A stretch of 47,339 bases of DNA from Reclinomonas americana ATCC 50394 (GCA_048213135.1 PS015376.1:5007-52345); one strand, 5' to 3'. Counted from the stretch's first letter, positions 3,671 through 41,135 are shown. Translations and numbers: made by a program. Notes: generated by a model not told the origin, from the letters alone.

Positions 3671-3850
3671 GAGTCTTGCTTGATCGGCGAAACGTTAAAG
3701 ACTGCACGACACCGCGCGAGCTGTCACATATTTACAGTAAACAAACAAGCGACTGCATTTGTAAGTAGTTGGCAGTACGTTTGTCAAGAACAGTATAAAT
3801 GCGGGCGGTGGTATGGAGATGGTGGTGACATTTATTTTTCTGTATCACTC

Positions 3851-6800
3851 TCACTGCTTCGCCATGCGCAACACCTCCCCCACTATGACGGTCAAGTACC
3901 GGGCAAACTCGACACCGTGTCCTTGGCGCGTCTCTGGTGTGCAATGTGCCAACTCGTGGAGCAGTACAGCGATGCAGTCGCCACGTGCGCGTCGTCGATC
4001 CTCGGCCGCAGTACACAAGTCGATGTTGATGTAGATGTCGATGGTGCGGTTCGCGGCGACGCGATCGTTGAAAACACACAAGCCGTCCAGTCGACGCGGA
4101 TTGGCGCGCGAGTGGAACAATTTGAGCTTGACGCTGTCGTCGCAGGAGCCCATCAGCAGCTTCTTCACCATCCGAAGCTTGTCCACTAGCGACAGGAAGC
4201 TGTCGACTGAGAATTTGGCATTCGTCAATTCGGCACACTCCGGCAGTCGCTCCCGCAGAAGACGCAAGACAGCAGCAGCCATCATTGGCTCTGGATTCCA
4301 CTTTTGTTCCTCGATCTCGTCCATCGACACGATCTGCTCTCCCACACAGTGAACATGCTGAGAACAATCGACGGCAAATCATGCAGCGAACCTTGCTATC
4401 GGCAGGCAGCTTGCTGTTGCAGTCGCCTTCCGACTTTGGGACTGCAACACCGGCACCGTGCTCGAGCAGTGCTTTCGTGCGCTCTTGCAGACACTGCGAG
4501 AGAGAGTGAGAGAGCACGTCAGCGGTGACAGCAGTACTTCCTCAGTGCTCCAGATACAAACCTTGAGCGAATCGATGCCTGGCCCACGCTGCGTGAACAT
4601 TGGCGTAAACCGGCGACGAGAATCGCGGCCTTTGCACGGGAGGTCAACCTCGTCTTCCTCGCCGTCGTCCGAAGGAGGTGGAAGTGGCAGCTGCGATTGA
4701 CCGGCGGCCTTCTTGTGCAACTCGATCGCACTGTACGCTTGCACAATGCCGTTGTCGGCCTCGGCCCTCGTCTGGCAGCGATCGGCGAACACATGCAACA
4801 CGGGTGATGCGTGAACGCGATTGTCAAAGAGCACCTTTCGATCCTGCATCAGGTCCTTCGGTCCGGAGAGGTGGAGACGTACAACGTTTCGCAGCGGCGA
4901 TGCACGAAGAATACGGTCGTGGCTCACACTCTCCACGTGTGCGCGATACTGCAGCGGGACAGCGTCCACCGAAACACCCCGTTGCTTGAACAGAGAGTCC
5001 AGCATGGCATGGACTGCTTTGCGCGGATGAGGATACGGGCCGTGAGCCGTCAGCAACCTGAAAACGGACGCCGAAACGGGCTGCGGCTTGCCCGAAAGGA
5101 GCGGAGCAAAGTCGCTGTTGGCGTCGTCAGTGGGCTGAGCGTCTGCGCCATACTTGTCCTTGAAGGCCTCCACCAGTACCTCGTATCCGCAGTCCTGGCA
5201 CTTGGCGAGACCGCGCACATCCTGCAGATTGTCGTCGCAGCGACCATCGCCAGTGCAGCACTTGTCGATCAACAATTTGGCCACCGCCTGTAGGCATGCG
5301 TGTGTCAGACTGAGACACATTCTCATGCACAAAAACACACATGCAGTGCGTGTTACTAACCCGTGCGACACTTTTTTCGCCAAGCAAAAGTTTGGACAGC
5401 ACTTTGCCGGCATGTTCGCGTAGGTCGGAAGGAGCAACCCAGTCGCGATCCCGGCCCACATGCGTCGCAGCCGGGAGGTTGTAGCCGCACAACAAAAGTC
5501 CGTCGTGGTCCTTCATCACTCGCGCGCCGGCCACGTACACCGCTTTCAAATTGGTGAAGATTCGGCGCTGCTGCCACGGACACGAAGCTCTGCCTCGAGC
5601 GCTGGCCACCGACAGAACATCAGGATTGGCGAGCAAGCGACTGGCAGGCCAGAAGCCGAGGTGGATGTCGCGAAAGAAGTCGAGCGACAGTGCCTTGCTG
5701 AGCTTGACGGGACGCTTGCACAGCCGCAGTGTGCCGTTGACGTGCGGGGAAGGGAAGCCAGGAGCCGGAGTCACGATCATCAGCACCCCCTGCGCNNNNN
5801 NNNNNNNNNNNNNNNNNNNNNNNNNNNNNNNNNNNNNNNNNNNNNNNNNNNNNNNNNNNNNNNNNNNNNNNNNNNNNNNNNNNNNNNNNNNNNNNNNNNN
5901 NNNNNNNNNNNNNNNNNNNNNNNNNNNNNNNNNNNNNNNNNNNGAGTGGTGGCGGCCATCTTCAGGCCCTCGCCGTGCCGCCCCGCCATTCCACTTCCAC
6001 CATGATCCTGCTTCGCCGAGCGACCGAATACGCGCAGGGCATCTTGCGGCAACGCGCCAACGTTCCAGCACGCAAACATCTCGCCGTACCGCAGAAACCA
6101 CGCCACGCACTGCCGGTGTTCGGAGCGGTTCTCAGTGGCGAACTGCTGGAACATCCAACCACCAAGGGAACCGCTCGCCGGATCAGCGAGCTCGGTGACC
6201 TCGTTGGCAAAGGTGTGCGTGGCCGGTGAATGATGCACGCACACGGCATCAAAGGCGTTCTGCACCAGCTCTCGCATCGCCGCCGACAAGTCCCACGTGC
6301 CGTCCACCGAGCCGAAACTGGCCGTCACGTTCAAGTGATGGATGTTGCTTGCCGAAAGCTCGTGCGCGAGCGGCGTGGCAAAGTCGACCAGGCGCTTCAC
6401 CTGTGTGGCGACAAGAACTGAGCATGGGCATGATGCAGAGCAGGAGGTGGAAGGAAAATACCTCACTGTTGAATAGCCTGCGCAGCCTCTCAGAGTCGTC
6501 GCCAGGCGCAGGCGGCACCAAGTCCTGTGGCTTCGGCAGCCTCCTCGACTTCTTGCGTCGCGAAGCTCTCTCATCATCATCGTCGACATCATCACCATCG
6601 ACATCCATGTTTCCTGCACTGCTGCTGCATTCGTCGTCGTCACTCTCGTCGCTGTCGCTGTGAGCGGGAGAACCCACACGTTGCTTCTTGCGAGGGGGTT
6701 CGACAACAACAACTGCGTGGTCGTCCGTGTCGCCTGTGGGGGACAGAGGGGCTGGTGGTGGTCGTGCCTCAAAGACGTTCTTCGTCGACACAGGTGATGC

Positions 6801-6854
6801 GTTGGCGGACGGCAAGGGAAAGGAAACACGAGGCCGAGACGGAGGTGTGTCCAT
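3851..6854 (-). CDS. GHKL (HSP90/MutL/MORC-like) ATPase fused to a C-terminal HExxH zincin (SprT/WLM-like) metallopeptidase; exons 6854-6462, 6400-gap, approx. 5790-5361, 5287-4562, 4493-4392, 4333-3851
   Basis: N-box AMRELVQNAFDA (approx. 6277-6245), G2 box GRHGEGLK (approx. 5983-5960), transducer-like YVAG...GYNL...RDRD, and LLHELAH-x8-HGVEF (approx. 3964-3905); all four visible introns are GT-AG and phase 0. Confidence 0.75.
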
Positions 6855-7063
6855 TCTCTGCGTGCGAGGGCGAGAGTAATGATGGGGGGTAGAAGGAGAA
6901 TCGAGGCATTGTCGAGTTGTTGTCGTGATGCGTCAAGTTGGTGGAGTTGGTGGGTGGGTTTGGTGGGCAGGCGACAACCCGGCAAGTTCATTCCCGCTCG
7001 CGCCTAGGAGGACAATCGTTGCAAATCCATCATACACTCGCTGCCTTGAGAGTTGACAACAAC

Positions 7064-9227
7064 ATGTCATACGTCCCTCCTCATCGGCGTCCGGGTGCGA
7101 TCCCTCTTCGGCATTCGGCTGTCGAGGACAAGCTTGCTGAGCTGGAAGGCCTCGCGCGAGATGTTGGCATCTCTGGGCTGATTGACCAGATGATGGTGCG
7201 TGGCATCTCACACGATCGTTGTCTATAGAGGATGTTTCACCGAGAGGGCAGTTTTGTTAAGTCTGTGGTGTGGGAGGTCGTCATCTATTTTGTTGTCACC
7301 TTCTCTGATTGTGCTTCCTCTGTGCTTCCCCCGTTGCCTCGTCATGCCATTGAGTACCCTCCTCGTAGTCCTTGAGCTTTGTACGTGCACGATGATTGCT
7401 TGATTCACCGCGGTGATGCCACTTTTGTGCACACAGACAGCCGTTCATTTGGGGGGTGCATCTTGTCTTACTTTTGTCAACGATGTACGGTTACACGCAC
7501 TGTTGCGCACGTAGACGTACACGCTCCACACGTAGACGTACACGTACACGCTCCACACGCACACGTACGATCGTGCCCAGAGTGGAAGACAAGTTCTCTC
7601 GCACTCGTGATGCATGGGCGTTGTTTTCTGAATACTTTTCTATCTCATCGTTCCTGCAGCTGCTGTATCTTACCTTGCCCCTGCAGTCGTTTGCATGTTT
7701 GCACATGCCTCGAGAGCAAAGCTTGATGATGCGTTAAACTGTGTCATTCCGTGCAGAATTTGAATCAGCGTTGCGAGGCCTATGTCAACAAGTGGGTGGA
7801 TCCTGTCGCCAGCTTGCGCTTTGGGCTTCAAAAGGGCCGCACGGAGGGCATGGATGCCACTGAGCGGCAGCACCTCTTTCGATCAGCGGTTCAACAAATC
7901 TTCGCCAATTACGAGGGCACTGTCCAGCACATGGTGGCTGATTTCGTCCTCACACTGCTGAGTGTCCACATTGTCATCGTCCTTCATGGAGCTGGCTTTC
8001 GCGACGCCGGAAGCAACGACTGTGCGGCGGCAATCACCGCTTTGGAGGATTCGTGGCGCTTCCCACAGCATTGGCTTACCATCTTGAAGAGTTTTGTGTC
8101 TCAGGTACGCTGCGTTTCTGACGCAAGCGATTTGATTCCTGTAGCCATGTTCTCACGGCTCGACGCGCTCGCAGGGTGCCAGTGCACGTGTCGAGTTGAA
8201 GACGAACAACGTAGTGTTCGGCGCCTTCACGACTCGGCGCGATTTTCGACGACAGTTTATTCGCCTTAACGGAAACCAAGGTGGGCTGTCGGACAGCGGT
8301 CGTCGTGGCATTGATATGGTGTTCAAGAGCATCTGCGGAGGATGGTTGTCGCCGGTTGACCTGCCAGCTGAAGGCCTCAAGAAGGATCTGTTCATTACGT
8401 TCCTTTGGCGCCCAGCAAATCTCTTGGTCATGCCGGAGGTCATTAAGGTCGACTGTGACATTGCTTACGAGCTACAGCAACTGTTTTACGGTGCACGTAA
8501 CATCTTCTGCCACGGAACTCCGTACGCCACACAGCACGGAGCTCTGGATCCGCCATCTAGGACACACAAGTTTCTCACTGGCGAGAAGCGCCAAAATCTT
8601 ACTGCAGATCCGCGACGCTCTGTGTTGAAGAACTTATTCAAGCCAGGCACGAACGTGCGTTGGTTGATGACTTCTGCCGCCGACAATGCAACTCATGAAC
8701 TTCGGAATTTCTACCGTGTCCTCCTGAAATGCGAGTCTCGCGATGACGTGAGCGTCGACATCAACCTTGTCCACAGCATGTCCTCGTTTTTTCGGCGCTG
8801 TCTTGGCTTTTACGTGCGATCACTGTGTCTGAGCACGTGGCAGAAGCTTGGCTTGCCAGTTTTCGGATTTTCTGTTGACGGTGTGGAATATGCATGGCGA
8901 TCTCCGATAGTGACAGCTTCCGCTGCAGCTGCCATGGCCACTATGCGCGTGCTGCCCCGTGACGCTTCCAATGACGACCGGAAGGCCCAGCTTACTCGTC
9001 GCATTCTTGTCAGGCTGGCGCATACGCATCCACACATGATTAGTGACTTGAAGGACGAATACGCTGAGCTGGCTCGCGATCGGCTTCATGGTGAGGCACC
9101 GGCCGCGGTCGATGTCGACGATGACGATATCGGTGACGATCACCACGACGAGGAGTCTGACGACGACGACGAGGAGGAGGAGGAGGTTGAGGCTTCAGGC
9201 TCTGGATCGGCTTCCGGATGTCGTTGA
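7064..9227 (+). CDS. Approx. 510-aa protein with a HEPN-like RxxxxH motif (putative RNase); exons 7064-7195, 7757-8104, 8175-9227
   Basis: Two phase-0 GT-AG introns join three ORF-track entries; helical context LQQLFYGARNIFCHG (R-N-I-F-C-H at 8496-8513); N-terminal MSYVPPHRR and an acidic tail. The gene model is stronger than the HEPN call. Confidence 0.6.
7505..7570. repeat. Short ACGT-rich tandem repeat (cacgtagacgtacacgctcca, 2-3 copies) in intron 1 of the HEPN-like gene
   Basis: Direct reading of the repeated units. Confidence 0.8.
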
Positions 9228-9480: not shown

Positions 9481-10943
9481 CTAACCGACGGCCGAGCTGC
9501 CGAGAACACCTGGAGCGTACTTGCCGAGCAAGTCAACGAGCATCTCTGCAAGTCTGCGACGAGCGTCCACGAGAACGGAATTCTCCGCACCATCTCGTCC
9601 GTTCTCCAGCCGATGCCTCACGACTTGGAACACGGAAGCCGGATAAATGCGTTTCGGGCAGCAGTTCTCCACACCGTCCAACATCAACCAGCAGCGGAAG
9701 TCCAGGTGAAGCAGCGCCTCCACGGCGCTATTCATCATGGCGTCCTAATCAGTGACACAGTTTCGCCACACTTGAAATGCCTCCTCGAACGTCAACGGAG
9801 AGAACGTGGTCCACTCGTCGCGGAGAGCAGGGGCCACGTCAAAGTGGTCGTCGTTGATGAACGGGACCAGCAACGTCTGATTCTTCTCCCACATTTTGAC
9901 CAAGAGGGCGCTGCGGAAGCGTCCAACCTTGGCAGTGGTGTAGCCTTGGTCAGGCTCATTGCGCGTGCGGTCCAACGTGGCGTCGATGATGTTTTCGAGG
10001 GCGCGTGGTGTGGACCCGGCCAGAAAGAGACAAAGGTGGAGCAGCTCCACCGCACCTTCTTCGAATTCACCGCCGACCAAGTTGATGCGGAGCACAGCCG
10101 CCGCAGTTCGAGTGTCGACAGGAGTGCTGCAATGGAGGCGGTCGGTGCGGTACTTGGTGCCGTTCAGGTTGGGCGCGTTGTTGAGACCGGGGAACTCGCC
10201 GCGAAGCGCAGGGCTCGCATTGCACGTGATCAGCATGGGCAGATCTAGAACCGCAGCAGATCCGCACAGGTTGGTGCTGATGAAGCCCGAGGCCTGATCG
10301 CCGAGAAAGGTGAGTTCGGCGAGTGTTCCCAGTGCCACATCTGCAAGCTGAGCTGCGCGCGAGTCCACCAGTACGTCAACGCCGCCCAGGCGGTACAACT
10401 GATCCAACTCGTCCACCAGCAGAAGCAGCCTCTTGTTGTGTCGCTGTGTAGGGTGTCGATGAGCCGCAGTTCTGTGCTCACGTCCTCGCGGACGCGCATG
10501 CCGTGCGTCTGCGCCAGGCAATCCTGCACGACTTGCATCACGCTCTTGCGGCCCACGACACAGTCCGGCGCGGAGAAATCCGCATAGTTGACGTGCACGG
10601 CAATCACATCGGGGAAGAAGACGCCGCACAGGTCCGTCCACGTGCGCAACACGGTCGTCTTGCCGATACCCACGCCACCAACAAACAGCGATGAACCGAC
10701 ACCTCGCTTGCCGACAAACGCGCCACGCTGCAACATCGCAGTGGTCCACGCAAGGCGATGATACAGCTGCTGGTGCACGGGCGTCCGGAAGCACGGCACC
10801 GGCGCAAGCCGATCCACTGCATCCATCACCGCCTCTGCCGTGAGCGGCTGCGCGAGTGGCGCCATCCCAAGCGCATCCTTCAGCCGTCGCGTGTGATCAG
10901 GCGGCGGCGACCACACAGCAGCGCGCACAGCTCCTCTGAACAT
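9481..10943 (-). pseudogene. Intronless P-loop NTPase (STAND/Crinkler-NTPase-like), disrupted by a frameshift near 10445 and an in-frame TAG at 9747-9745
   Basis: Walker A GGVGIGKT (approx. 10679-10656) is in one frame and Walker B LLLLVDELDQLY in another; removing one CA from ctacacagcga joins them (..IDTLQRHNKRLLLLVDE..); ORF 9738-9481 continues in frame after the TAG. Confidence 0.72.
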
Positions 10944-15015: not shown

Positions 15016-18000
15016 TTATTTGTTGCTGGGCGGCTGGAACTCGCGGAGAACCTGTTCGCACGCGGCCGGGTTCGCCTGCCACCACTCGCGCAGCATGTGC
15101 TGCATGCGCTGACGTGCGGCGTCGTGCTCCAGCGAGGCGCATACGGTGTCGGCATGCGATTCCAGGTGCGCCACCACGGCGGCGTCGTCGGACCAGTCGA
15201 CGTGCGACTCGCAGGCGGAGCGCAGACGCGAGAGGTACTCGATGCGCTCGGTGGTGGCGTTGGCACCCGCCGCGCGCATGATGCGCTGCACCGCGGTGTC
15301 CTCTTGCAGACGGCGACGCAGGCGCCAGTAAAAGTAGGCACGCGACTGCTCCCACGGGACCACCTCGCGAATGGCGCCCTTGGCTTGCATGCGCACCGGC
15401 GTGTCGTGCAGCTCGGCAAACTCCACGGCCACTCGGTGGTACGTGCCGGCCAGCGCAGTCTCCCGCTGTGTCAGGCGAGCGCGCAACTCAGCGCAGCGCG
15501 CCGCGCTGTCGGGCGCCCGGCTGGCCTCCTTGAGCTCGGCCGCCAAGCGATTGGCCACCGGATCGAGACGCTGGATCGCGGACTGAATGTCGCGCTCACG
15601 GAACTTGATCTCCACAATGCCCTCCGGCTCCAGCACACCTCCCGAGGCCGACGGGTCGGCGTACATTTCGATGCGCGCCGCATTAATGCTGCACAGAGTG
15701 GAGAGTGGTGGTGAGGAGGAAGGATTGCTCATATGGATTGGTTCTTGCAATCCCACTCACCAAGAATCGAGCACGACCCATGCACCGCCGCGCAGCTCGG
15801 CCTCCGGTGGAATGTACACAAACACTGAGATGATCGCAACAAATGGTCAGCCACTGAGTCTCTTTTCTTGTTTCCCTCTGTTCTTCTGCTCTCACCTGGC
15901 TGGTCATAGTCGACAAGACGCTCGACAATCATCGAGCCGAACTTGAGAATCTCCTCAAACATGTCACGACGACCGCCCGAGAACCCACGCCAGTTGGCAA
16001 AGATGAAGAGCGGCAGCCTCTCACCTACGCATTCACATGTCATCACAAACAGCGTCATCACTTCTCCTCCCGCCACCGTGACATACCGTGGTTGAAATCA
16101 TCCATCAACTGCGCAGTCTTGAATGCCGAGTCCGGGAACCACACCTGGCCGGCCTTCTGCACGTAGCGTTCCACCGAGTCGGGGTCCGCGGGTTCCGCTG
16201 GTCGCCACTGACTCGCGACAAAGAGTAAGCACCTCACCCATCCTGTTGCTTTTCCCCCTTTTTCAGACTCACCGCCTCTGTGAGCCTCGTCTCGACTGCA
16301 ATGACGCCAACCGGAATACCACCGAGCCGGGCACGACCGCCGACAACGTTGCGCGCCCACCCGCCCAGGTACTCACGGAAGGAGCCACGATCGAAGAAGC
16401 CCGGCCGCCACAGGCCACCCACCGTTTGACCGGCCAGCATCAGGCGCGGATCGAGTGAACCGTCGGGCAGCGGAGCCACCACCACCTGCAACGCGAATCA
16501 GCCTCACATGATCACGGAGATCTCGCAGCACAGCAACGCAACTGGGCGATACACTGGATCCGACGACGGCAGCACCGGGAGCGGTGCCGACACCGTCTCG
16601 GGAACAAAGGCCAACCACGCGAGGAGCTCCGCCACACCCTTCAAGTCGTCTGAGACGACCAGGTGTGAGATGCCGTTCGCGTACATGATGCGAGTGCCAC
16701 CAATCTCCACATTCGATTGGTACACGGTGCGACCGAGGACCTGTGTGCGGGTGCCGTCAGAACTGGCACAAAAGACAGAGTATGTTGGACACTTGCGGTA
16801 CCTTGTTGAGTGCAGGAGCGCCAGTGAGCAGGATCGGCTCGTCGCGCTTCTGAATGCATCTGCACAAGACAGAAGTTGTGAGAGAGCTGGCAGAAGCAAG
16901 AAGGAGGACGGCGACAAGAAGCGACGCACCGTTGACCAAGGCGCACGAGGTAGGCGCCAATGCCGACTGTGCGACCAGTCACAAACGATGCCGTGAACGA
17001 CTCACGATATGCTCGTGTGGTCTCGCCGGCAATCAGTCCCGAGCCACTCAGGTTCTCCACACCAATGCCTGTGATGATGACAAGTCAGCGACAATTCGAA
17101 TGGGAGAAGAACTCGCTCTTCTATCCCTTCCGCTCACCATCGGCGCCGTTCACAGACGAGAGCATGAAAATCCGCTCGCCAGTGCTCGGGTGCACCTGGA
17201 ACGAGCCCGACACGGTGCCTTCGGGAAGCGAAGCCAGCTCACTTTCCGTCAAGTACAGTCCATCAAAGCCTTGCGACGGGTCTCTGTGTGCGTTGCATTT
17301 CCCCGCAGAGTTAGCGCGCCACATGACAGGCACGAAAGACACACACAGACACACACTCAACTCTGCGTTCTTCCACAGAACGTGGAACAGGCGCTTCACG
17401 TCCATATCGAGGCCGATGCGCGCACCCGAGTTGGCAGCCATGAAGAAACGTGGCGCACCGTGCTTGCGCGCCAGACGAGACACTCGCTCAAAGAGCGCAT
17501 CCTGCACACATCACAAGTGAGTTGGCGCTTGCCTCAACCTTTGGCCAGAAACACAGACATCAAACCTCGTCCAGCGAGAACGATCCCGACGAGACCGTAA
17601 TGTCGTTTGCGAGGACATAGACAGGCCGTCCGTTCGGGTACTCGGGAGTGCGAATCTGCATGCGCCACGCCACCATGGCCACTGTGCTCGACAGCACCTC
17701 TGACTCCTCCGTCTCCACCTCCTGCAGCCCGTCGGGTCCGTCACCCAACACAAGGCGCGTGGCTGTCACGAGGCTCTCGTCTTCGGACAGCGACGGCAAT
17801 TGACGAGGTCCGGGAACTGCAGTGGCGCGCGACACGAAAAATATTAGTCACCTGCACACATTATCTATAGCTATCTTTCCTCGGTGTCGACTGACCCGCC
17901 GGTCCCTCTGCCATGGACGTCGCCAGGTGGCGTCGTGCGCGCGAACTGGGCGGTGGTGCCAGCAACACCGGCTCGCTCTCGCCAGCCGCCGCCGCCGCCG

Positions 18001-21000
18001 TCGCCGCACCAGCAGCACCGGCACTGGCGTGGCGGGAGCCAGTCATCGGTGCGCCGGCATTGTCGGTGCGATACTTGCGCCACCGTTCCTGCGCGGCCAA
18101 CTCAAACAGCGCGGGATAGTCGTGCACGTAGGGCGTGTTCTGCACTTGCGCAGCGATGCGCTTGTGGTCGAGTGGCGTGAGACACCGGTAGGGTGTCGTC
18201 GTTGGCAATCCATCCTGGTTTCACAAAAAAACACCTCAGCAACACTCACAGAGACATCAACTTTGCGCGCTGCTTGCACGCACCCACGAGTCGTACGCCT
18301 CGAGCACACCACCGTAGCTGCTCTTGGCCGGTCCGAGATAGCGGAACACAGTCGACCCGCTCAGTTCGTCCTTGACCTCCTGATAGATCTGGATGCCGAG
18401 ATCGTACCGCAGGTAGTTGTTGGCGACGAAGCGGATCGAGCGGATCTCGCCCTTGGGGGTGGAAATGCACGCGCGAATTTCCACCTCACGCACACCGAGG
18501 CTCCAGATGCGTGGTGCGCAGCTGAAATCACCGTACGGTCAACACCGAGTCACGAAAAAGGGATCACAGTGTTTGTCTGCATCTACGGGCGCAACTTGAT
18601 GGCAATGTTGGAGATCACCGAGAGACCGCGCTCGGCGTTGGTCGGGAACACTGTCAACACATTCATGTAGATGTGGTTGTAGAAGGTGCGTCCGTACGTC
18701 TTGGTGTCCTCAATCAGCAGCTCGAGAGAACTCAGCGTCTCCAAGAACAAGTTCTCGATTTCCGTGGTGCGGATATCCTGTCCGCGACCAGTGATGGGAA
18801 TGTCGCCCTCCAGCACCAGCGCACGCACAAAGAACCGCTGATCCGACACGCCTCCCGGAGAAACCTGTGAATGATTGCACGCCCAAAAGTCAGCGTTGAT
18901 TAAGACACACTCTTTTGTCTCTCAGACATTCTCTTCTGTGTCTGTCTCTCAAGTCTCTCTCTCTCTCTCTCTCTCTCATGTCTCTCTCTTTCCCAGACAT
19001 CCTCTTCTGCGTGTGTGTGCCCCTCCCTCTCTCTGTCTTTATTTCTCTCTCTCTTTCCCTTTCCCCTTCCCTCTCCCCATCACGCACCTTGTCGTTCTTG
19101 GCCTTGGCGTAGTAAATGTGGATCGGCCGGTTGGAGTTGGACGGCACCAGCTCAATGTCGTAGTTCCGCAAGCGCATGAGTCCCAGCTGGTGCGCCATGG
19201 CCGGCTCAATGTCACGGTACAGCGGATCGATTTTGAAGTCGAACCGCGAGCGGAAAGTGAAGAAGCGAATGTTGCGGTAGCGCTCGGGAGCATTGGTGCC
19301 GCACACAGTAAAGGTAACGCGACGGAAACCATGCCTACGGGAGAATGCGGTCAGAGAGGAACATTGCACACTCATTCGCCACACTACTCAACTCGGTGAG
19401 AAGCGGAATGCACGGGGCGAGGCTCGACGAAAACAAGGTGACCAGCTCGTCGTCAGTGACAACGCGGTTCTTGTAGTCCATCGGCAACGCAATGCTCAAC
19501 ACGTGTGAGTTGCGCGTCGGCTGATCGAAATGGCTCTCCAGTGGACCCGTGACGAGACCGCTAATGAAACGCGCAACTGCCTCGCGCAAGTCAGCCGCAT
19601 CGTCCATGTGCGGCAGCACGCCGAGGAAACCCGTGGCCAGTCGCATGCTGCGCAAGTCCTCCATCGACTGGATGCGACGCAGTTGCATGCTGTCGCCAGC
19701 GCCGCCACCACTACCACCACTCTCCGCATCGACTCCAGGTGTGCGCTCCGGTTGCTTGAACAAGAAGAATGCCGCCGGCACGTCGTCCACCTGTCATATT
19801 ATTGGATTGAGTGTCACAAACACGGCGCAGCATTCGATATCTCCCTCAACAAACCTCCACATGCTGGATCTCGTGAATCGGGAGAGTGCGATGCGACACG
19901 CGAATGTACAGCTCAATCGCTGCACGTCGCACCGCACCAGTGGCCTGGTAAAACAGGGAGATGATCGCCTCGATGGAGAAGACCGAATCGCCCGCCAGAC
20001 TCTCCTGCAAAATACGCAAGCATGAGCACACGAAAAAGATGGAGCGCACGACGCAAACATCAAGCGCTTCACGAACCAATGACACCGGTGGTCCTGCATT
20101 GCCTTGCTCCTCCACCACACGCTCGATCATTTCACGCAGCGAAGCAGTGCGCTCCTCGACAGACACGAGTTTGGAGTGCGCGCACATCAGCTTGGCACGC
20201 AGCGGCACGTCACCGTATCCACCACGTCGCTGGAACGAGCACAAGCGCTGCACCATTTGCGACACGTTGGAGAACCACAGTCCTTCGTGCTGGATCAGAC
20301 TGAGCAGCTCCAGCACCACCTGTGGGTTGTCGGTTGTTGTGAGTAATTAGTGAAAGAAGACGCACACGCGAAGAGGCACGCAACGGTGTTCTTCAACGAC
20401 AAGCCAGCGTGCGAAAACATGTACGAAAAGAGCATGGTGTGGTCTCCCTGGCACTCCTCTTTGAGGTTGGCCACAATCTCGATATCGGTGGTCACCACGG
20501 CGAAGCGCTCCTCGGTCGAAATATACTGCTGCAGCAGCTCGCCGACCACCTGCGCCAGTGGTGCTCGATCGTCGATGCGCACCGCTGTCGTCATGCAAAC
20601 GCAATAGCACGGAAGCGAAGATAAGAAGGTCTGCATCGACACACTGGTGAGACTGCACGCACGTTTCGACAAGTCCCCAGACGAATCGCTTGTCCGCATG
20701 CTGCTTTCCAGTGGACTGCTGAGGGAGCGCATGGAGCTGGCCGGCGACAGTGTCGGCGATGGCGTGCGCGGCGAGCGCACAGGGATCAACTCACTGCGTA
20801 CGGAGAGTCAGCATGAAGAGAACTTCAGTGTTTTTGGTGTGCAACAACAGGGAGGCACGCACGGGCACTGGTAGCGACTGAGGAAGCGTGACATCCACGT
20901 GCCCAGCTCTGGGTTGTCGTCGGTGAATGGCTCCAGCGACGTCTGCAACTCAAAGAACGGGAACACGCCATCAACACGCGCAGCCGCCACGGCACGCTGC

Positions 21001-24000
21001 ACCGATTCGACGACTGGTGGCGGCAGCAGCTTCTCAAAGACAGAAAAGCCATCAACAAATGTGTCGAACGGCACCGACTCGTCGAGCACCAGCTGCAGGT
21101 TGGCAACAGCGCGCGAAATCATGCCCTACGGAGCCAACACCACGAGTGAGCACGAGAGCAGGAGAGCAACATACACACGTTAAAAGCTCGGGGAGTACCT
21201 TAACAATGGACTCGGGACAAGCGTAGCCGTCGATAATGCCGGAGAGGACCTTCAGCGAGCGCTGCAACACCTGGTACGCCGAGTCGGAGGGCAAGCTGAC
21301 ATCGGAGAACTGGAAGCGCATGCTCTCGGGGAACGGGTCACTCAGCGGCGCCGCCTGCATGCTGGCCGCCGTGTCGTCCAACTCCAGATCGGCAATCAGG
21401 TCGCCGACTTCCAGCGCCGTCTTCTCGGGAATGCGGTGATGCACGCGGCCGCCCAGGGCCGAGACCACCGGCAAACACATCTTCATGACCTCCACCTCCG
21501 CATACGCCGTGCCGGCGTCCACGTGGCCGCCATCGGGCACAAGGAAGCTACAGAAACAGCAAGTCAGAGGCACACCAGCATGCACCAAACAAGGGGTAGG
21601 ATATCACGCACCGCAACAACTTGCCGGCCACCTCGGCGCGCAGCTTTGACGGGTCCTTCTGCGTCGGATAGAAGCACACGCTGTTGTCGATGATCATGCG
21701 AACACCACCGGCCTCCTCTCGCCAGTACACCGTGTGGCTGGCGTGATTGATGACCAACAAAATAGCTGGCGTGCAAGTATGAAAGAGGTGAGGAATTGTG
21801 ATGCAAAAGAGCAAACACGCACAGTGCAACTCACCAGCTTCGTTGATGGGGCGCACAGTGGCGTGGACAACAGAATTGTTCATCTCCACCATGAACGAGT
21901 CGCTGCCGGAGATGTATGCCGTCGCGCAAACCTGCAGTGATGATACACGGAATGAGCACAAAGACTCAACACCACACAACCCTTTGCCAGCACGCAACAA
22001 GGTGATCGGCAAACACAAACTCAATGGGGAACGAGTAGCCGACGAGTGTACGCGTCGGCATGTGACCCTGGCTGATTTGTTGCACGAACGCAGCACGGTT
22101 GCGTCGGCTCGAATCGTACGCCGACTGCACACAGCGGCACACCACTCCCAACATAAAGTCGGGCGGATCGGCGCGCACCGACTTGCTGATGATGCGGTCG
22201 AGCCATTGTGTGTCGTGACGATTCTTGGCAAAGTCCTCGCTCTCCAGCAACTTGCGCACCATGCCGACCGAGTTGTAGATCTCACCGCGAATCACCAACT
22301 CGCTCAGTGCCAAAATCAACCGTCGTCGCGCCTCCTCTCGTGTCTCGCCTGCCGCCAAGCATGAGTGAGCAGTGTGCTGGGCACGCTGACATTCACACCA
22401 AGAGGGCAACTCACCGCGCGCAAAAATGTGACCAAACTGTGAGTCGGAAAACTGGTGCACCGAGCCGCGATGCTCAAACGAAAAGTAGCCCCACACGTGT
22501 GGCTGACTGCGGAACGAGATCTCCTCAATCGAACCCGTCGTTGGCACGAAACCCTCGTCTGCGTTCTCGGCGGTGATGCGAGCAGCAATCACATGGCCGC
22601 GTGGCACTGGCTGCAGACTGAGATCGGCACCATACAGGCGACCCAACTCGGGAATACTGCGTCACACACACACACGAGTCGTCAGCTTCCAACCCATCTC
22701 CAACTCCATCACAAAGGACCGACGCAACTTGCCCAGTGGCATTCCCATGCCGACCAGCAATTGGGCGGCGGGAATGTTGACTCCACTGATGCCCTCCGTG
22801 ACTCTGTAGTGTCGACAAATTCGACAATGAGTGACAGGGAGTGCATGCGTTCAGTGATCGAGGCACGCAACGGATGCTCCACTTGCACACGCGGATTGAG
22901 CTCGAGGAATGTCCAGCCGGTGGGCGTATACAGGTACTCCACAGTGCCGACGCTGCGGTAGTCGACCAGCTTGGCGAGGCGCACAGCCGCCTGCTCCATC
23001 TCACGCAAAATCGGCGCCGGCACAGCATCGGCTGGACCCTCCTCAATGATCTTTTGGTGGCGACGCTGCACGGAGCAGTCGCGTGTCCACAGTGCCACCA
23101 CTCCACCGTGCCCATCGGCCAGCAGTTGCACCTCAATGTGGCGAGCCGACTCGAGAACGCGCATCACAAAAATCGGTGAACCAGGCACCTACTCGAGGTG
23201 GTGAGCTCACACGAAAGTTTAGCACAAACAAATCTCCCTCACCTCCGACTGCACTTGCGCCAGTGCACGTGCCATGTCCTCCGAGCGCATCACCTTGCGA
23301 ATGCCCTTGCCACCGCCACCTGCAACGATTCGCGCGTCAGCGACAGGCGGCAACAACAATACGTGGTGCATCCTGCATCTTTTCACCTTCACTGGCCTTC
23401 AAGACCACCGGATACCCGATGCGTTCCGCGTGCCGAATAGCCTCCTGTGCCGAGCCGACAGCCGCACGTGCCGCCAATGCGGGCGCCACACTCAACGGTG
23501 CGTCGCCGTGCGCATGATTCGCGGCACCCTCCACCACCAGCCCGTCGCCACTCCACGCCACCGTTGTCACGCCAGCACTCTGCGCCAGAATCGACGCCGA
23601 CACCTTGTCACCGAGCGCACGCTGCGAGTGCGCCGACGGGCCGAGGTACACCACACCGCGCTCGCCAAGCAGCTCCGGCAGTCGTGGGTCCTCCGATGCA
23701 TGGCCCCAGCCACTCCACACGGCGTCCACGCGACGGGCTGCGAGGTGGGCAAGAAGAGAGGGAGAGGGAGAAAGAGAGGGGGGGGGAAGGGAGGGAGGGA
23801 GTGAGGGAGAGAGAGGGGGGAGAGAGAGAGAAAGAGAAGGGAAAGAGAGAGAGAGAGAAATGAGTGGCTCCGCTTTGGATGGCGTGGTATGTAGACTGCA
23901 AGGCTTCTCAAGCGAAGTCTGTCGGCGATTCTGCAAGTCTCATGTCTGTTGCCTTGCATTCACCTCACACTCACTGCAGGGCCAGCTTGTGAACTCTGCT

Positions 24001-25509
24001 GACAGTGCAAGACTCCGTCTCTCTCCCTATCTGCGAGGTGATCTTGTGAACTCTGATGGCGATACAGCAAGCTCAAGTCTCTTACCGTTACCTTGTCTCT
24101 CGCAAACTACAAGGTGATCTTACGCAAGCAGAGGCCTCATGTATCTCACTCCTGCCGTGCCTCTCGCTCATTCACAAACTGCAAGGAATCCTATGAACTC
24201 AATGGGCAATCCTGCAAAAGATCTCTCACTCTCTGGAGCTGCAAAGCCCTACAGTGAACTCTGGTGGCGATCTTGCAACTTCACATCTTTTACACTTGCC
24301 TTGCCTCTCGTTCTCTACACCCTCTCAAACTGCATGGATCACTTTGCAGTTAGTGAGAGAGAGGCGGAAGGGAGGGAGGGAGAGAGAGAGAGCACGCGGC
24401 ATGAGGCTTGCAGGATCGCCATCTGAGTTCACTGTAGGGCTTTGCAGTTTCAGAGAGGGAGAGAGTGGCATGGCAAGGAAAGAAATCTGAAGCTTGCATG
24501 ATGCTTGTTTCAGATTTCTTTCCTTGCCTGTTCTCTCTCTCTCCCTTTCTGAAACTGCAAAGCCCCAACAATGAACTCAGATGGCGATCCTGCAAGCCCG
24601 TTCTTCTCCCTCTCAAACTGCATGACATCATGCAAGCTTCAGATTTCTTTCCTTGCCTTCTCACTCCCTCTCTGAAACTGCAAAGCCCCAACAATGAACT
24701 TAGATGGCGATCCTGCAAGCTTCACATCTCTCTCTCTCTCTCTCTCTCTCTNNNNNNNNNNNNNNNNNNNNNNNNNNNNNNNNNNNNNNNNNNNNNNNNN
24801 NNNNNNNNNNNNNNNNNNNNNNNNNNNNNNNNNNNNNNNNNNNNNNNNNNNNNNNNNNNNNNNNNNNNNNNNNNNNNNNNNNNNNNNNNNNNNNNNNNNN
24901 NNNNNNNNNNNNNNNNNNNNNNNNNNNNNNNNNNNNNNNNNNNNNNNNNNNNNNNNNNNNNNNNNNNNNNNNNNNNNNNNNNNNNNNNNNNNNNNNNNNN
25001 NNNNNNNNNNNNNNNNNNNNNNNNNNNNNNNNNNNNNNNNNNNNNNNNNNNNNNNNNNNNNNNNNNNNNNNNNNNCCCTCTTCTCAACTCCGACGATCCC
25101 GTATCTCTCTCTAGATCTCTTCCCCCCATCTCCATCTCTCGCTCAGTCACTCACCAACAGCCACATCCACAATCAGCTCAGGATTCGCATAGTTATTCAA
25201 GTTCCTCCCGCCCGGCACCTCCACAATCTCCTGCGCCAGCCGCACAAACGCCGCTCCCGCGCGCAAATCATCCGGCGTCGCCATCACCACAAACACCAGT
25301 TCATCATCATCAATTCCCTTGCATATCATGGCACTTTCATCGCGTGAGCTGCCCATTTCATCGGCATCGCCACCTGCACGGAGTGCACGATGCTCGTTCC
25401 ACCACATGCGCATCGATCGGATGCCCTTGACGGCCGCCAGACCATTGTTGGCAATCAGAATGCGACGGATGCGGCGGTGTGCGCCGAGGCTCTCCAGGTA
25501 CGCGTCCAT
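15016..25509 (-). CDS. ACC1: Multidomain eukaryotic acetyl-CoA carboxylase (BC-BCCP-central-CT), more than 25 introns; an upstream exon in the gap is possible
   Basis: [68 protein letters not shown], biotin motif EVMKM (21492-21478), [39 protein letters not shown] stop at 15018-15016. Confidence 0.98.
23870..24730. repeat. Direct and inverted copies of a tgaactcagatggcgatcctgcaag-containing unit in ACC intron 1; long foldback at 24405-24598
   Basis: Copies at approx. 24047, 24193, 24255, 24572 and 24694 (direct) and 24405-24431 (inverted); perfect 20-bp stem 24472-24491/24509-24528. Confidence 0.85.
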
Positions 25510-26332
25510 TTTTCTTGTTTGCTGCACAGAGAGACAAACACCAGTGAGAGTGAGTGAGTGATCACATCGCGTCGAGCATGTCGGCACTTCTCCACCCCCC
25601 CCCCCCCCTCTTTTCGCTTTTTGTCTTCCCCATTTNNNNNNNNNNNNNNNNNNNNNNNNNNNNNNNNNNNNNNNNNNNNNNNNNNNNNNNNNNNNNNNNN
25701 NNNNNNNNNNNNNNNNNNNNNNNNNNNNNNNNNNNNNNNNNNNNNNNNNNNNNNNNNNNNNNNNNNNNNNNNNNNNNNNNNNNNNNNNNNNNNNNNNNNN
25801 NNNNNNNNNNNNNNNNNNNNNNNNNNNNNNNNNNNNNNNNNNNNNNNNNNNNNNNNNNNNNNNNNNNNNNNNNNNNNNNNNNNNNNNNNNNNNNNNNNNN
25901 NNNNNNNNNNNNNNNNNNNNNNNNNNNNNNNNNNNNNNNNNNNNNNNNNNNNNNNNNNNNNNNNNNNNNNNNNNNNNNNNNNNNNNNNNNNNNNNNNNNN
26001 NNNNNNNNNNNNNNNNNNNNNNNNNNNNNNNNNNNNNNNNNNNNNNNNNNNNNNNNNNNNNNNNNNNNNNNNNNNNNNNNNNNNNNNNNNNNNNNNNNNN
26101 NNNNNNNNNNNNNNNNNNNNNNNNNNNNNNNNNNNNNNNNNNNNNNNNNNNNNNNNNNNNNNNNNNNNNNNNNNNNNNNNNNNNNNNNNNNNNNNNNNNN
26201 NNNNNNNNNNNNNNNNNNNNNNNNNNNNNNNNNNNNNNNNNNNNNNNNNNNNNNNNNNNNNNNNNNNNNNNNNNNNNNNNNNNNNNNNNNNNNNNNNNNN
26301 NNNNNNNNNNNNNNNNNNNNNNNNNNNNNNNN

Positions 26333-26505
26333 AAGGGGGAAGGAGGAAAGGGGAAAACGGGGAAGGGGCAAGGGGAAAGGGGGAAGGGGAAAGGGGGAAG
26401 AGGAAAGGGGAAAGGGGGAAGAGGAAAGGGGAAAGGGGAAGAGGAAAGGGGAAAGGGGGAAGAGGAAAGGGGGAAGGGGAAGGGGGAAAGGGGAAGGGGA
26501 AGGAG
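26333..26505. repeat. Polypurine (GGGGAA/GAGGAAAGGGGAAA) low-complexity tract
   Basis: Direct reading. Confidence 0.9.
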
Positions 26506-26933
26506 GCACAGAGAGAGAAGACACACAAGAAGAGGAGCCCTTGATGTCACGACAAGGGCGCAAAGGAAAAGGGCGGCGAGAGAAGAGAGAGCTCTCAACG
26601 TTGAACTCTCAAGTGTGTGTGAGAGTGACAGGCGCACAAGGCACTGATGTCAAGGCAGAAAGGAAAGAACGACAATGGCGCGCAAAGGATGAGGTCGGGG
26701 ATAGAGACAGGCGGGAAAGAGAACAAGCACTTGATGTCGCGCGAGAGAACGACAGGCGACTGAGCCCCAGATGCTAGAACAGAAAGAAGGAACGAAAGAC
26801 CGTGCGAGAGCGGGAAAAGAGTCAGACAAGACACAAAGAGAGTGCCGTGCGTCGAATAGAGGAGTTGGGAAGTGCGTGTCCTTGAATTCTCGAGACAGAG
26901 GAGATGTACATGTGTGCGTGTGATGGCACAAAC

Positions 26934-31520: not shown

Positions 31521-37180
<5,660 letters not shown>

Positions 37181-37417: not shown

Positions 37418-40209
37418 ACGACGAAGCACCCAAGTGGTCGGCAGGAACTGCAGACGCTCGGTAGGGTAGGCAGCAGCCAGGGTGCCATGCAGCTCCACCG
37501 GATCGGTGAGACGGCGGGCGTTGCAGAGGCGGTTGACCCACGGCTGATGGTCACGAGCCGGACTGTCGGGCAGCAGGCGGAGAATGTCGGGGCGACTCGT
37601 CCACACGTACTCGAGCGAGCTCGCGTGCGGGCCACTGCAAGAAAACAAAAGAAAAAGTCAGCAACACCAAAATCCAGGATGCTCTGTACGCATAGAAGTG
37701 CGACGCAACTAAATGCCACCCTGAGCGCGCTGCAGACCGAGCTCCTTGAGCTTGGGCACCAAGCTCAAGCCGAGGCCGGTGACGTAGAACGAGCGCATGG
37801 TGCCGTCACGCTCCGAATCCGTGGACAGCTGAGAGCCGCATCGTCGCGACGGCTGCGAGTACACCTCCACCGCCAGCTCCTCCAACGGCACGTACGACGG
37901 GAGAGCCGCGTCGACCATGAAATGGTCCTCGGTCTCCGGCACCTCCGTGAGGCGAATCGAATGCACGTACTCGTCCGTGGCCGTGTGGCGGAACGCAATG
38001 CGGAAGTCGGAAATCCAACTGCAGCCCTGCAGGAACGGTCGCTGGAACGACACCGTCACGTGGCCCGGTCGGCCCGCAATCGGCAACACCTTGGGCGTCA
38101 AAAAGTCCGCTTGCGTGTCTGGGGGCGTGGGGAGGAAGAGTTCGTGAGATGTCGTCGAGGGAAAAAGACAATGGGCAATCATCACACAAAAAAACACACC
38201 TTCGCGCGGCGTGGCAAAGTAGCCCATCATGGACGGCGGTGCCTCACCCTCGGCCGACACAGCCGCCACGTGGCACTCGTAGGTGCTGTCGGGGGTCAGG
38301 TTGCGCACCATGGCGCGCATCTGATCGCGCGGCACCTCGACCACAATCGGTGCCTCCTTGTCCTTGTCAGCGAGGTCGTCGGTCGCGGCACCCAGTGTGG
38401 CTGCCATGTTGCGAGCGCGTACACACTGTAGGCGCCAATGTGTGATGCCTTCCTCCGTGGTGTTGCTGCGTCCGTCGGCATTCTTCTCAAAATGATCGCT
38501 CCACCCAATGGCCAACTGCATGCTCGACGCGTGCAACGACACTGGTGCCTGCGTGAGCCGTGGTGGCAGTGGTGCTGCGTGCAATAAGAAGAGATAGAGT
38601 GAGTTCGGTTGCAGTGGGGGGGCAGGCAAACAAACAGGGCGAGGACGCAACCAGGATACAAGAGCTGATGACCAAAGAGCAAGTAGGCGACGCAGGCGAC
38701 GAGCACTGCCGAGGCCACAATTAGGGTTCGATTCCGACCACCGTGACTGTCGGCACACGGGCTCACGGCCGGTTGCGACAGCTTGCGAGACGACTCCTTG
38801 GTGGAGATCTCACTGACTGAGGACGCCATCTTGCCGTCGGCACTGCCCTTCGCCTCGTCTTCGTCGTCGTTGGCGGAGGACGCGTCCTTCTTGCGCCGTC
38901 TGAGTGTCGTTGATGACGGCGACTTGCGCTTGCCAACTGCCGACGACTCATCGCTGCTCAGCGAGGCATCGTCTTCGGCATCGTCATCCTCCTCGTCGTC
39001 ATCGTCGTCGTCGCTTCTGCCAGCGCGCCCATGCTGCTTCTCGCCACTGCTATTGTCGTTGGCGCTCTTGTTTGCATCGTTGCTCGTGGCAGAGGCGGCG
39101 GTGGCGGTGGCGGCAGCAGCAGCAGGGGCCGGTGCACTCGCCAACAGCGAAGCCGCCGAGGTGGCAATCACGTGTGCCGAGGCCGCCTCAGGCAACAAGT
39201 GCCGACTCTCCCGCTGCGGCTCATCATCGCTCGCATAAACATCCTCCTCGTCCTCCTCATCCTCCTCCTCTTCGGCGTCATCGTCTTCCTCTTCGTCTTG
39301 CTTGTCTGCATTCTCCTCCTCGTCCTTGTCGTCGTCAGCGGCCGGACCGTCGACACGACGCGGTGTGAGTGGTGGTGCAGTCGCCGATGCCGCCGACGCC
39401 GCGGCCAAGCTTGCTCCTGGGAGTGACAAAACTGGAGCAGCCGTGGCGGTCGTCGTGGTCGTCGTCGACGACGACGACGACGATGAACCCGGCGCCTGAA
39501 TGATTACGCGATTGGGCGCCAGTGGAGCAGCCACGACGGCCTTGGGCGCGGCCAGCGGTGGCGATGGAGCACCATCATTGTCCTCTCCAGAGCGCGAACG
39601 TGCTGTCGCAGTCGTCGTTGTGGTCGTGGTCGTGGTCGTCGTCTCCGTCGGTGATGCCACCACCGTGGTGGGAGGCACCACAAAGAGCGGATGCGCCGAC
39701 GTCTCCGCATCCTCGCCCATCAACCGCACCGGCTGCTGCTGATGCCCATCAAACAACACCGGCTCCGCAAACACCAAGCTCTCTCTCCGCACGGGCGAGT
39801 TCAGTGGTGGCGGCGACGGTGGCGGCAACGGCGACTCCTTCAGTCGCAGATTCGTCACTCGTGAGGGCGTGGCCGGCACGAGCACATCCGACTCTGATTG
39901 GCGTCGCTGCATGCTGGCGAATCCCTCCAAGAGTGCCGCAGAGGCGGCGAGAACAGGTGCCTGTGTGGCATCTTCAGCAACACACATAGCGAGACAAGTG
40001 AGCGTGTGTGTGAGAGAGTGGGGGGTTACCTCTGCCAGTGCTGCGACCAAGTCATCATCATCATCGTCTTCATCATGCGCTCCCTTTGCGGTGCGTCTTG
40101 TGAGTTGTTGCGCGGTGCTCAGCTCGAGCTTGTTGTCCGTGGAGAGAGTGTTGCAGGAGGCAGCGGCGGCGACTGAGGAGACACCGACATCTGTGTCTTG
40201 CGAGGCCAT
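37418..40209 (-). CDS. Single-pass membrane protein: long acidic/low-complexity N-terminus, TM helix, FN3-like domain(s), start of a tubulin-tyrosine-ligase-like domain; truncated at a 20-N gap
   Basis: TM TLIVASAVLVACVAYLLF; FN3 signature VRNLTPDSTYECHVAAVSAEGE; C-terminal YVWT..WVNRLCNARRLTDPVELHGTL..FLPTTWVL resembles the TTL N-terminal VNH..LT.K..L..FLP.TW.L pattern; introns 40029-39961, 38651-, 38200-, 37709- restore the frame. Confidence 0.65.
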
Positions 40210-41083: not shown

Positions 41084-41096
41084 TTCTTGAATATTC
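41084..41096. promoter_or_regulatory. Possible heat-shock element (TTCnnGAAnnTTC) approx. 40 bp upstream of the ATG at 41136
   Basis: ttcttgaatattc matches three alternating nGAAn units; short enough to occur by chance. Confidence 0.3.
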
Positions 41097-41135
41097 GGAA
41101 GAATCGCGTTTGTCTACTTTTTCCTTCTCTCATCC

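Follow-up and report, generated by a model that had tools for sequence, protein, structure and literature searches.

In a 47,339-nucleotide stretch of DNA from Reclinomonas americana ATCC 50394 (GCA_048213135.1 PS015376.1:5007-52345; the whole stretch is called the window below, and positions are counted from its first letter), the minus strand of 3851..6854 appears to carry one spliced eukaryotic gene, whose product would join an N-terminal GHKL ATPase module to a C-terminal minimal zinc protease of the SprT/Wss1 kind. We assign the gene, as a highly diverged and very distant member, to a family of GHKL + mini-zincin proteins that is spread over bacteria, archaea, megaplasmids and phages, and we give this identity and architecture a probability of about 0.65. 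As judged from the sequences of its members, the family standard is one to three GHKL modules (Bergerat-fold, Hsp90/sacsin-like) followed by a C-terminal mini-zincin of ~100 residues.

The assignment is carried by a profile of 12 full-length GHKL + zincin proteins, from which the zincin-less phage sequences had been left out. It matched the spliced protein with 49.3 bits, the best of 1000 shuffled sequences reaching 3.5 bits, and its positions 17-89, 184-234 and 353-441 fell on spliced residues 166-282, 416-468 and 806-908, that is, in the order of the family. As a single full-length profile covers the ATPase exons as well as the zincin exon, ordered as in the family, these exons probably belong to one gene, and this homology is the best available evidence for it.

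The gene and its parts

The predicted gene was divided as follows.

3851..6854, minus strand: whole coding region from ATG to stop, in five exons by splicing and in six open reading frame (ORF) pieces, as the assembly gap cuts exon 2
6462..6854, minus strand: exon 1, 131 aa; first in-frame ATG at 6854; low-complexity N-terminus
6401..6461, minus strand: intron 1, 61 nt, GTATTT..CACAG, phase 0
5944..6400, minus strand: exon 2a, 152 aa; N-terminal half of the GHKL module
5796..5943, no strand: assembly gap, 148 N inside the GHKL module
5361..5795, minus strand: exon 2b, 145 aa; C-terminal half of the module, including the RDR region
5288..5360, minus strand: intron 2, 73 nt, GTTAGT..CTACAG, phase 0
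4562..5287, minus strand: exon 3, 242 aa; helical linker, Cys cluster (5260-5189) and acidic Pro-rich stretch
4494..4561, minus strand: intron 3, 68 nt, GTTTGT..TCGCAG, phase 0
4392..4493, minus strand: exon 4, 34 aa
4334..4391, minus strand: intron 4, 58 nt, GTTCGC..GAGCAG, phase 0
3854..4333, minus strand: exon 5, 160 aa; helical lead-in and mini-zincin domain
3853-3851, minus strand: stop TGA of the fusion gene, read from the sequence
3831..3836, minus strand: AATAAA, 15 nt 3' of the TGA stop
6855..7064, no strand: intergenic stretch of ~210 bp, common to the fusion gene and a divergent plus-strand ORF (start near 7065; MSYVPPHRRPG...)

A previous, sequence-only reading of this DNA had proposed six ORF pieces joined through four phase-0 GT-AG introns, and on the minus strand all of these coordinates checked out. 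It had also counted six exons, with one junction hidden in the gap; the six pieces stand, but we modelled the gene with five exons, the second of them being cut by the gap. The expected size of more than 850 aa agrees with the model, which has at least 864 codons plus the residues under the gap, and every exon is free of stops in its stated frame. The four introns are 58-73 nt long. The in-frame GC content at third codon positions (GC3) was 0.61-0.78 in all exons, including the 34-aa exon 4, and that at second positions was 0.39-0.52; the overall GC content was 0.47-0.54 in the introns versus 0.57-0.63 in the exons. By-eye comparison with the family suggests that the gap hides about 25-35 residues and that neither an intron nor a stop is required there. 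Directly after it, 'QGVLMIV...NGTLRL' pairs by eye with 'ADVLVI...GTdItF' of the family.

The motifs that had been quoted for this protein were all found, namely PPRKKQR, RRKKSRR, the acidic runs, MRELVQNAFDA, GRHGEGLK, CC..C..CQDC and HELAH-x8-HGVEF. The acidic runs and two basic motifs resembling nuclear localisation signals (NLS), PPRKKQR (6698-6678) and RRKKSRR (6560-6540), lie in exon 1, for which the Pfam search gave chance-level matches only (E 0.27 or worse). This tail is absent from the prokaryotic relatives, and the family profiles begin to match at spliced residue 166. In exon 3, only the first ~60 residues align to the family profiles and the Cys cluster is lineage-specific; the exon had no match in Pfam, NCBIfam, PADLOC or PHROGs.

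Relatives in bacteria, archaea and phages

When its pieces were searched as single sequences, the gene looked like an orphan. A word-indexed search found no relatives of exon 3 among longer proteins, nor of exon 5 among longer and near-length proteins. Exhaustive phmmer comparison of exon 2a with 1.84 billion representatives gave only three matches, to repeat proteins, which we judged spurious, and phmmer against PDB sequences gave nothing meaningful. In a tblastn search of phages, four records were returned for exon 2a, all at E-values of at least 3, and none for exon 5; pattern scans for exons 2a and 5 in viral contigs and for exon 3 in metagenome contigs found no relatives, and four pieces searched with PADLOC had no match. 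The faint signals that were seen pointed to the two folds. Exon 2a matched HATPase_c_3 over the G2 box (E=0.088; 13.3 bits, under the Pfam cut-off of 25) and, weakly, the sacsin N-terminal domain over motif I (E=0.25), and in the ESM Atlas it met HATPase_c_3 / SACS clusters at 0.92-0.95; exon 5 met one Atlas cluster at 0.88, in which 13% of the members are SprT-like. We treat the Atlas matches as leads only.

A path to relatives was provided by PHROGs, in which the top match of exon 2a was phrog_6077 (E=8.6e-5). ORF34 of Pseudomonas phage Ab18 (363 aa) is a member of this group (E=2.8e-136). In BLASTP it aligned to exon 2a over motif I (E=0.002) and over the lid and G2 box (E=0.078), and tblastn with ORF34 retrieved 115 phage records, 12 diverse ones of which were taken for the family set. 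From 13 phage ORFs, and with the window sequence left out, a profile was built and compared with the joined exons, with X at the gap. Its match to the spliced protein scored 43.7 bits (single-target E=1.2e-15; no shuffle out of 2000 exceeded 6.7 bits) and fell into three parts, ordered as in the family: motif I, the lid and G2 box, and the RDR region. A 20-module profile gave 49.4 bits. The alignments of two of the three family profiles (13-phage-ORF and 20-module) span the junction at intron 2, and over the exon 2b region the profile domain scored 20.6-25.2 bits.

The motifs shared with the family follow the same order in the spliced protein: W-x6-RELxQNAxD, LLxGxSxK..GxFGEGxKxA, the RDR region and then the C-terminal HExxH. 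Across 11 aligned family proteins 12 columns do not vary (W, E, Q, L, four G, RDR and the initial M), and the spliced protein matches every one of them, the consensus having been read by eye; an alignment that includes the exon-2a translation has 14 invariant columns. Family members themselves pass the Pfam thresholds: HATPase_c_3 is matched with 56.5 and 50.9 bits (cut-off 25) by two plasmid-scan proteins, L021 and L022, and HATPase_c with 28.9 bits, above the cut-off, by a third, L019. Since the spliced protein matches the family with 49 bits and its members match HATPase_c_3 with 50.9-56.5 bits, transitive homology supports a GHKL-type domain as the N-terminal module, in agreement with what had been proposed. 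Membership of the MORC, MutL or topoisomerase groups was dropped, as no match supported it.

The pairing of the two modules in one gene, with the ATPase first, had been taken as a singular fusion. The pairing and its order held up, being the standard architecture of the prokaryotic family; the singularity did not, as the GHKL-zincin architecture already exists in prokaryotes and phages and the eukaryotic copy is a distant one. A pattern scan found a C-terminal HExxH at eight of eight species-genome loci (Aneurinibacillus, Kosmotogaceae, Pirellulales, Bacteriovoracaceae, an Anstonellaceae archaeon, two Methanosarcinales and one uncultured archaeon), in proteins of 438-1099 aa. Among phages, HExxH was present at the end of 2 of the 14 ORFs, those of Moorella phage MTATph1 (CDS0173, 446 aa) and Exiguobacterium phage vB_EalM-132 (gene 137, 437 aa), and three of four further plasmid or phage proteins carried it C-terminally. 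With one HExxH-bearing phage ORF as the query, tblastn returned seven plasmid records. Three megaplasmid 'ATP-binding proteins' of 958, 1104 and 695 aa have one to three tandem modules and one HExxH module each, which is terminal in the first two; named members include WP_272443548.1 (Aneurinibacillus, 958 aa) and WP_212382915.1 (Alkaliphilus, 1104 aa).

Several variants of this arrangement were observed. L021 (NZ_CP116888.1 500267-503143) and L022 (NZ_CP058558.1 46111-49425) have three tandem GHKL modules and one zincin, the first module of L021 being truncated, and the archaeal L028 and L030 have two GHKL modules. L019 (NZ_CP109396.1 749684-751771), a 695-aa protein of a Streptomyces plasmid, extends ~200 residues beyond the zincin, and its gene adjoins dprA. 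One phage branch, phrog_6077 (e.g. Ab18 ORF34), has lost the zincin, and some of its members are automatically annotated as 'RIIA lysis inhibitor' or 'sacsin-beta sandwich'. In the Gram-negative phage branch (L003, L005-L014, L020, L031) both the zincin and the G1-box Asp are lost and motif I, the GEG lid and RDR are kept; its genes often lie among early or nucleotide-metabolism genes, such as those for PnuC, NMN adenylyltransferase and RNase H.

The fusion gene differs from this prokaryotic and phage family in several respects. It is eukaryotic, with four introns; compared with the single-module relatives (~440-470 aa), its product carries a 131-residue acidic and basic N-terminal tail with the NLS-like motifs, a ~40-residue insertion in or beside the ATP lid, and ~230 more linker residues between the RDR region and the zincin, among them the Cys cluster and the acidic Pro-rich stretch. 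After HExxH, the fusion protein reads GHGxEF, which is SprT-like, whereas most relatives read xDxTxxFE.

A tblastn search of all pieces against the window found no paralogue there. No eukaryotic relative was found either; the sensitive searches covered single exons only, which makes this weak evidence of absence. When metagenome contigs were scanned with the family alignment, one phage-type zincin-less ORF of 378 aa (L031) and no eukaryotic relative came up, and a scan of viral contigs with a family alignment found nothing.

The putative nucleotide site and the terminal zincin

The candidate nucleotide-binding motifs are these.

6245..6277, minus strand: GHKL motif I, MRELVQNAFDA; a W seven residues upstream is invariant in the family
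6170..6184, minus strand: DPASG, candidate G1 box (motif II) with the adenine-binding Asp kept; D73 of the exon-2a translation, from MAFFT and the deletion scan
6053..6067, minus strand: WNVGA, candidate degenerate G1 box, from hidden Markov model (HMM) alignments
5954..6028, minus strand: lid and G2 box, FGRSAKQDHGGSGMAGRHGEGLKMA; fits the family signature LLxGxSxK..GxFGEGxKxA
5445..5453, minus strand: RDR motif (GYNLPAATHVGRDRDWVAPSDL); RDR is present in 26 of 29 family modules

The Glu and Asn of motif I, the G2 box GRHGEG (GxxGxG) and RDR are intact in the spliced protein, and motif I (ExxxNxxD) aligns to motif I of the family members that exceed the Pfam GHKL thresholds. Part of the domain lies under the gap; 'NGTLRL' after it looks by eye like the GT of motif IV. 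The G1 box can be placed in two ways. It had been read as WNVG instead of DxG, and the HMM alignments agree, setting 'FACWNVGA' against 'isDkGxG' of the family, with the Asp lost. On the other hand, 'ELADPASG', which has the Asp, sits 25 residues past the motif I Asn (family spacing, 21), and in a deletion scan with the 20-module profile the best score was obtained by removing exon-2a residues 78-116 (46.6 bits vs 29.4 bits for the intact sequence). With the 12-protein profile the two readings tied, at 34.5 bits for DPASG and 34.9 bits for the other. DPASG thus seems to fit the G1 box at least as well as WNVG, and it would be followed by a lid insertion of ~39 residues; with either choice there are ~40 extra residues in or beside the lid.

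These observations bear on a reading in which the gene is real and homologous to the family, the ATPase module being a pseudo-enzyme that works as a nucleotide-independent scaffold or dimerisation unit, so that at most the zincin would be catalytic. We think this unlikely. The WNVG alignment replaces the G1 Asp, the extra residues fall in or next to the ATP lid, and of 29 family modules 13 keep the Asp at that column, the other 16, several zincin-bearing proteins included, having S, N or T there, so that the canonical adenine contact is commonly lost. Against this, motif I Glu and Asn, the GxxGxG of the G2 box and RDR are all intact, and DPASG keeps an Asp at the right distance from motif I, a placement that is best with one profile and ties with the other.

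The putative zinc-binding and catalytic motif lies in exon 5.

3905..3958, minus strand: HELAH-x8-HGVEF, HELAHCTPETRQGHGVEF; two His and the catalytic Glu, with the third His in GHG

An HExxH with a downstream third His of the GHGxxF type is what we take to be the SprT signature. SprT-like (PF10263) was the best Pfam match of exon 5 (E=0.001; 19.3 bits, under the cut-off of 25.6); WLM (PF08325) followed weakly (E=0.15; 12.6 bits vs a cut-off of 26), and the HEXXH family TIGR04338 was matched at E=0.0045. A five-sequence zincin profile matched exon 5 marginally (E=0.011), and a zincin-only profile of 12 modules matched spliced residues 836-908 (E=4.1e-4); with the last 160 aa it scored 10.5 bits, the best of 2000 shuffles being 5.8.

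The last exon was also modelled with AlphaFold2. From the single sequence the predicted local distance difference test score (pLDDT) was 36.5 and the model was discarded. With a nine-row alignment of family zincins from the species-genome loci, pLDDT rose to 67.8 with a predicted TM-score (pTM) of 0.64, and the model contained three strands, the HExxH helix and a C-terminal helix. The best Foldseek match in the PDB was human SPRTN, 6mdw (E=0.026, probability 0.99, 109 columns), followed by the zincin-like 3e11, the YbeY-like 1oz9, Wss1 5xbn and selecase. VIA-align of the model against 48,161 chains gave 1oz9 with Z 8.3, Wss1 5xbn with Z 7.8, SPRTN 6mdx with Z 7.2 (root-mean-square deviation 3.0 over 102 residues), YbeY 7y7o with Z 7.2 and 5ln5 (WLM/Wss1) with Z 6.1. 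The rows with Z of at least 5 were mostly HExxH metallo-hydrolases, with a few spider-silk repeat domains among them.

The model supports the zincin fold class for exon 5, and it does not support a choice of subfamily from the fold, because the top rows (SPRTN, Wss1 and YbeY) tie within 1 Z and lie near the background of the tool. The sequence itself favours a SprT-like assignment, through the best Pfam match and the resemblance of GHGxEF to the SprT signature. The SprT/WLM-like metalloprotease domain that had been proposed is supported as a minimal zincin of the SprT/Wss1 kind, by the Pfam match (E=0.001), Foldseek (6mdw) and VIA-align (Z 7.2-8.3), and the structure prediction that had been suggested as a check, made here for the last exon, gave a zincin fold for which SPRTN, Wss1 and YbeY tied at the top.

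Alternative readings, possible role and genomic setting

A number of results weigh against our assignment. Each piece alone scores under the Pfam thresholds (HATPase_c_3, 13.3 of 25 bits; SprT-like, 19.3 of 25.6 bits), the zincin profile matches are low in absolute terms (6.4-10.5 bits), and the 88 aa after the gap had no match when searched alone with the profile. The gene product shares 17-26% identity with family members over 250 columns, and in a maximum-likelihood tree the gene sits on a long branch beside the zincin-bearing bacterial and archaeal clade with an ultrafast bootstrap (UFBoot) value of 61, the donor lineage not being resolved. The exon joins are predicted from sequence and homology, and the 148-N gap within the ATPase module could conceal a stop or a frameshift. 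The exon 5 model leans on the family zincin alignment with which it was folded, and its VIA-align Z values of 7-8 are near the stated best-match background of that tool. ATPase activity may be lost or altered, because the G1 Asp is ambiguous in the fusion protein and 16 of 29 family modules have another residue in its place. Finally, a search of the literature found no biochemical study of any family member.

Some of the same points could be taken to mean that the pieces are separate genes, an ATPase-like one and one for a small peptidase, standing head to tail, or that they are a decaying pseudogene, the GT..AG pairs being coincidental. Wrong frames are open over several junctions, so the long ORFs alone do not dictate the splice sites; the ATPase module is interrupted by the gap, and no eukaryotic orthologue was found to confirm the exon structure. 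We nevertheless regard this as improbable. A single full-length prokaryotic profile matches the ATPase and zincin exons in family order, the same fusion occurs at eight of eight genome loci, all four junctions are phase-0 GT-AG pairs of 58-73 nt, and GC3 is raised in all exons. In addition, the model has no in-frame stop from 6854 to 3851, and the sole AATAAA noted lies after the final stop.

There is equally little chance, in our estimate, that the protein is a diverged GHL ATPase of the Tiamat / NO VEIN / sacsin clade, one whose protease would have kept or regained its activity and whose nuclease would have been lost. A preprint describes Tiamat as made up of an ATPase, TPR-like folds, Fold B, a Wss1-like fold that is inactive and a PD-(D/E)xK nuclease, and groups it with NO VEIN and sacsin in one GHL clade, which is common in protists, with homologues in water molds and algae and with an effector that is sometimes swapped, also for a peptidase (10.64898/2026.09.30.754977). 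On that description there are likenesses: in Tiamat, as in the fusion protein, a sacsin/Hsp90-like N-terminal GHL ATPase is followed in the same chain by a Wss1-like metalloprotease fold; Tiamat and the GHKL-zincin family are both prokaryotic, Tiamat occurring also in protists; and the C-terminal effectors are modular and include peptidases. Exon 2a gave the weak sacsin signal (E=0.25) and the SACS clusters of the Atlas, and 2 of 10 family members matched TmtA weakly at their N-termini (E=2.9e-5 and 0.0011). However, the window pieces matched neither DUF3684 (PF12449), NOV_C (DUF3883) nor the PADLOC TmtA model at E<=1, and none of six family members matched DUF3684 at E<=0.1. According to the same text, the metalloprotease-like fold of Tiamat is internal, dead and without HExxH, and the effector is the PD-(D/E)xK nuclease, whereas our protein of ~900 residues ends in its zincin exon. 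Because the Pfam and PADLOC markers of Tiamat were not detected in the window pieces and TmtA is only weakly matched, in 2 of 10 family members, we did not file the fusion protein under Tiamat; a deep relationship to that clade is possible. Contamination or a prokaryotic insert was rejected because the gene has introns and its neighbours are eukaryotic.

We return to the assignment as a GHKL-zincin protein. GHKL ATPases (Hsp90, MutL, topoisomerases, MORC, sacsin, Tiamat) are ATP-driven clamps, and SprT/Wss1 zincins are dangerous, tightly regulated proteases. The likeliest mechanism would be one in which the GHKL module forms a nucleotide-driven dimerising clamp, whose closure controls the substrate access or the activity of the SprT/Wss1-like zinc protease on the same chain, and in this organism the gating would probably take place in the nucleus. 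The probability given above applies to identity and architecture, and we set that of the activity lower; ATP binding, hydrolysis, gating and proteolysis are what we infer. Nuclear localisation is plausible on the strength of the NLS-like basic motifs, and crosslink repair or the activation of an effector is a plausible role.

Comparison with named systems places the protein as follows. Like SPRTN and Wss1, exon 5 appears to be a minimal zincin: it has the HExxH helix, and a third His stands within a GHGxEF-like motif. It differs in that the zinc-binding subdomain, SHP, PIP and UBZ of SPRTN and the SUMO-binding element of Wss1 were not seen in the fusion protein, and SPRTN and Wss1 proteases are not known to be fused to a GHKL module. 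T4 rIIA, for its part, is not known to have a zincin module. It is described as carrying an N-terminal GHKL ATPase domain and a C-terminal part that varies (PMC7824862), and in both it recalls the fusion protein; the rIIA label on some phrog_6077 members is an automatic one. MORC and paraMORC GHKL-S5 ATPases are described as having originated in prokaryotic conflict systems and as having been acquired by eukaryotes for nuclear use (PMC3417536). The fusion protein differs from them in that neither a MORC-type S5 domain nor a CW zinc finger was detected in it, and its best weak family signals are to sacsin, Tiamat and HATPase_c_3, not to MORC.

No published account of the function of the family was found in full-text searches of the literature, nor any paper on a GHKL ATPase fused to an active zincin, the nearest being the Tiamat preprint. 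The conserved fusion of GHKL and zincin in a single chain suggests an undescribed kind of nucleotide-gated protease. If our assignment is right, the architecture extends beyond prokaryotes and phages, as a eukaryotic genome has retained a copy that contains introns, keeps its catalytic motifs intact and has a tail of nuclear appearance; the gene would then offer a eukaryotic model for what GHKL-zincin proteins do, and it would be one case of a gene passing from prokaryotic conflict systems into the nuclear biology of eukaryotes. One may go further and suppose that the protist domesticated a prokaryotic or phage conflict-system protein into a nuclear SprT-like protease controlled by a nucleotide clamp, a step that we consider doubtful. 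If true, it would couple ATP to proteolysis without an AAA+ motor, and the GHKL-zincin family would have its first member from a eukaryote. In the Tiamat/NO VEIN/sacsin relatives the ATPase is followed by a dead Wss1-like fold, of which the fusion protein could also be the counterpart that has stayed active; those relatives would then be linked to an ancestral ATP-gated protease.

The neighbouring genes are eukaryotic and encode a Surp/PRP21 splicing factor, an acetyl-CoA carboxylase, a proteasome subunit and an S10 carboxypeptidase. The multidomain acetyl-CoA carboxylase gene occupies 15016-26650 on the minus strand (Carboxyl_trans, 15016-15756; Biotin_carb_C, 21966-22661) and is split by two assembly gaps, 24752-25075 and 25636-26332. 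Within it, at 22349-22414 (minus strand), an in-frame 66-nt GTGAGT..GCAG splits the segment FGHIFA..G.TREEA, presumably a conserved motif. This is probably another short intron, and if so, a length of 60-70 nt is usual for the introns of this genome.

The intergenic stretch 6855..7064 is likely to be a bidirectional promoter. The upstream neighbours are orphans as well: the plus-strand ORF series at 7065-9227 (MSYVPPHRRPG..., 7730-8269, 8145-9227) has no Pfam match at E<=0.01, and the same holds for an ORF pair at 9745-10943 on the minus strand, which contains a Walker-A-like GGVGIGKTT. Further long ORFs without a Pfam match are found at 38296-40218 (minus strand, 640 aa, acidic and Ser/Thr/Ala-rich) and 41091-42248 (plus strand, 385 aa). 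The genome seems to be rich in lineage-specific genes, and orphan status therefore means less here.

The window carries ten assembly gaps. Long (CA)n/(TG)n microsatellites were seen in 32236-33052, flanking the gap at 32383-32839, and in 35621-35981, near 35.7 kb, and (CT)n-type low-complexity DNA ('SLSLSL/PLPLP') lies beside the gaps near 13 kb and 25-26 kb. Such microsatellite and low-complexity repeats probably caused the assembly gaps.

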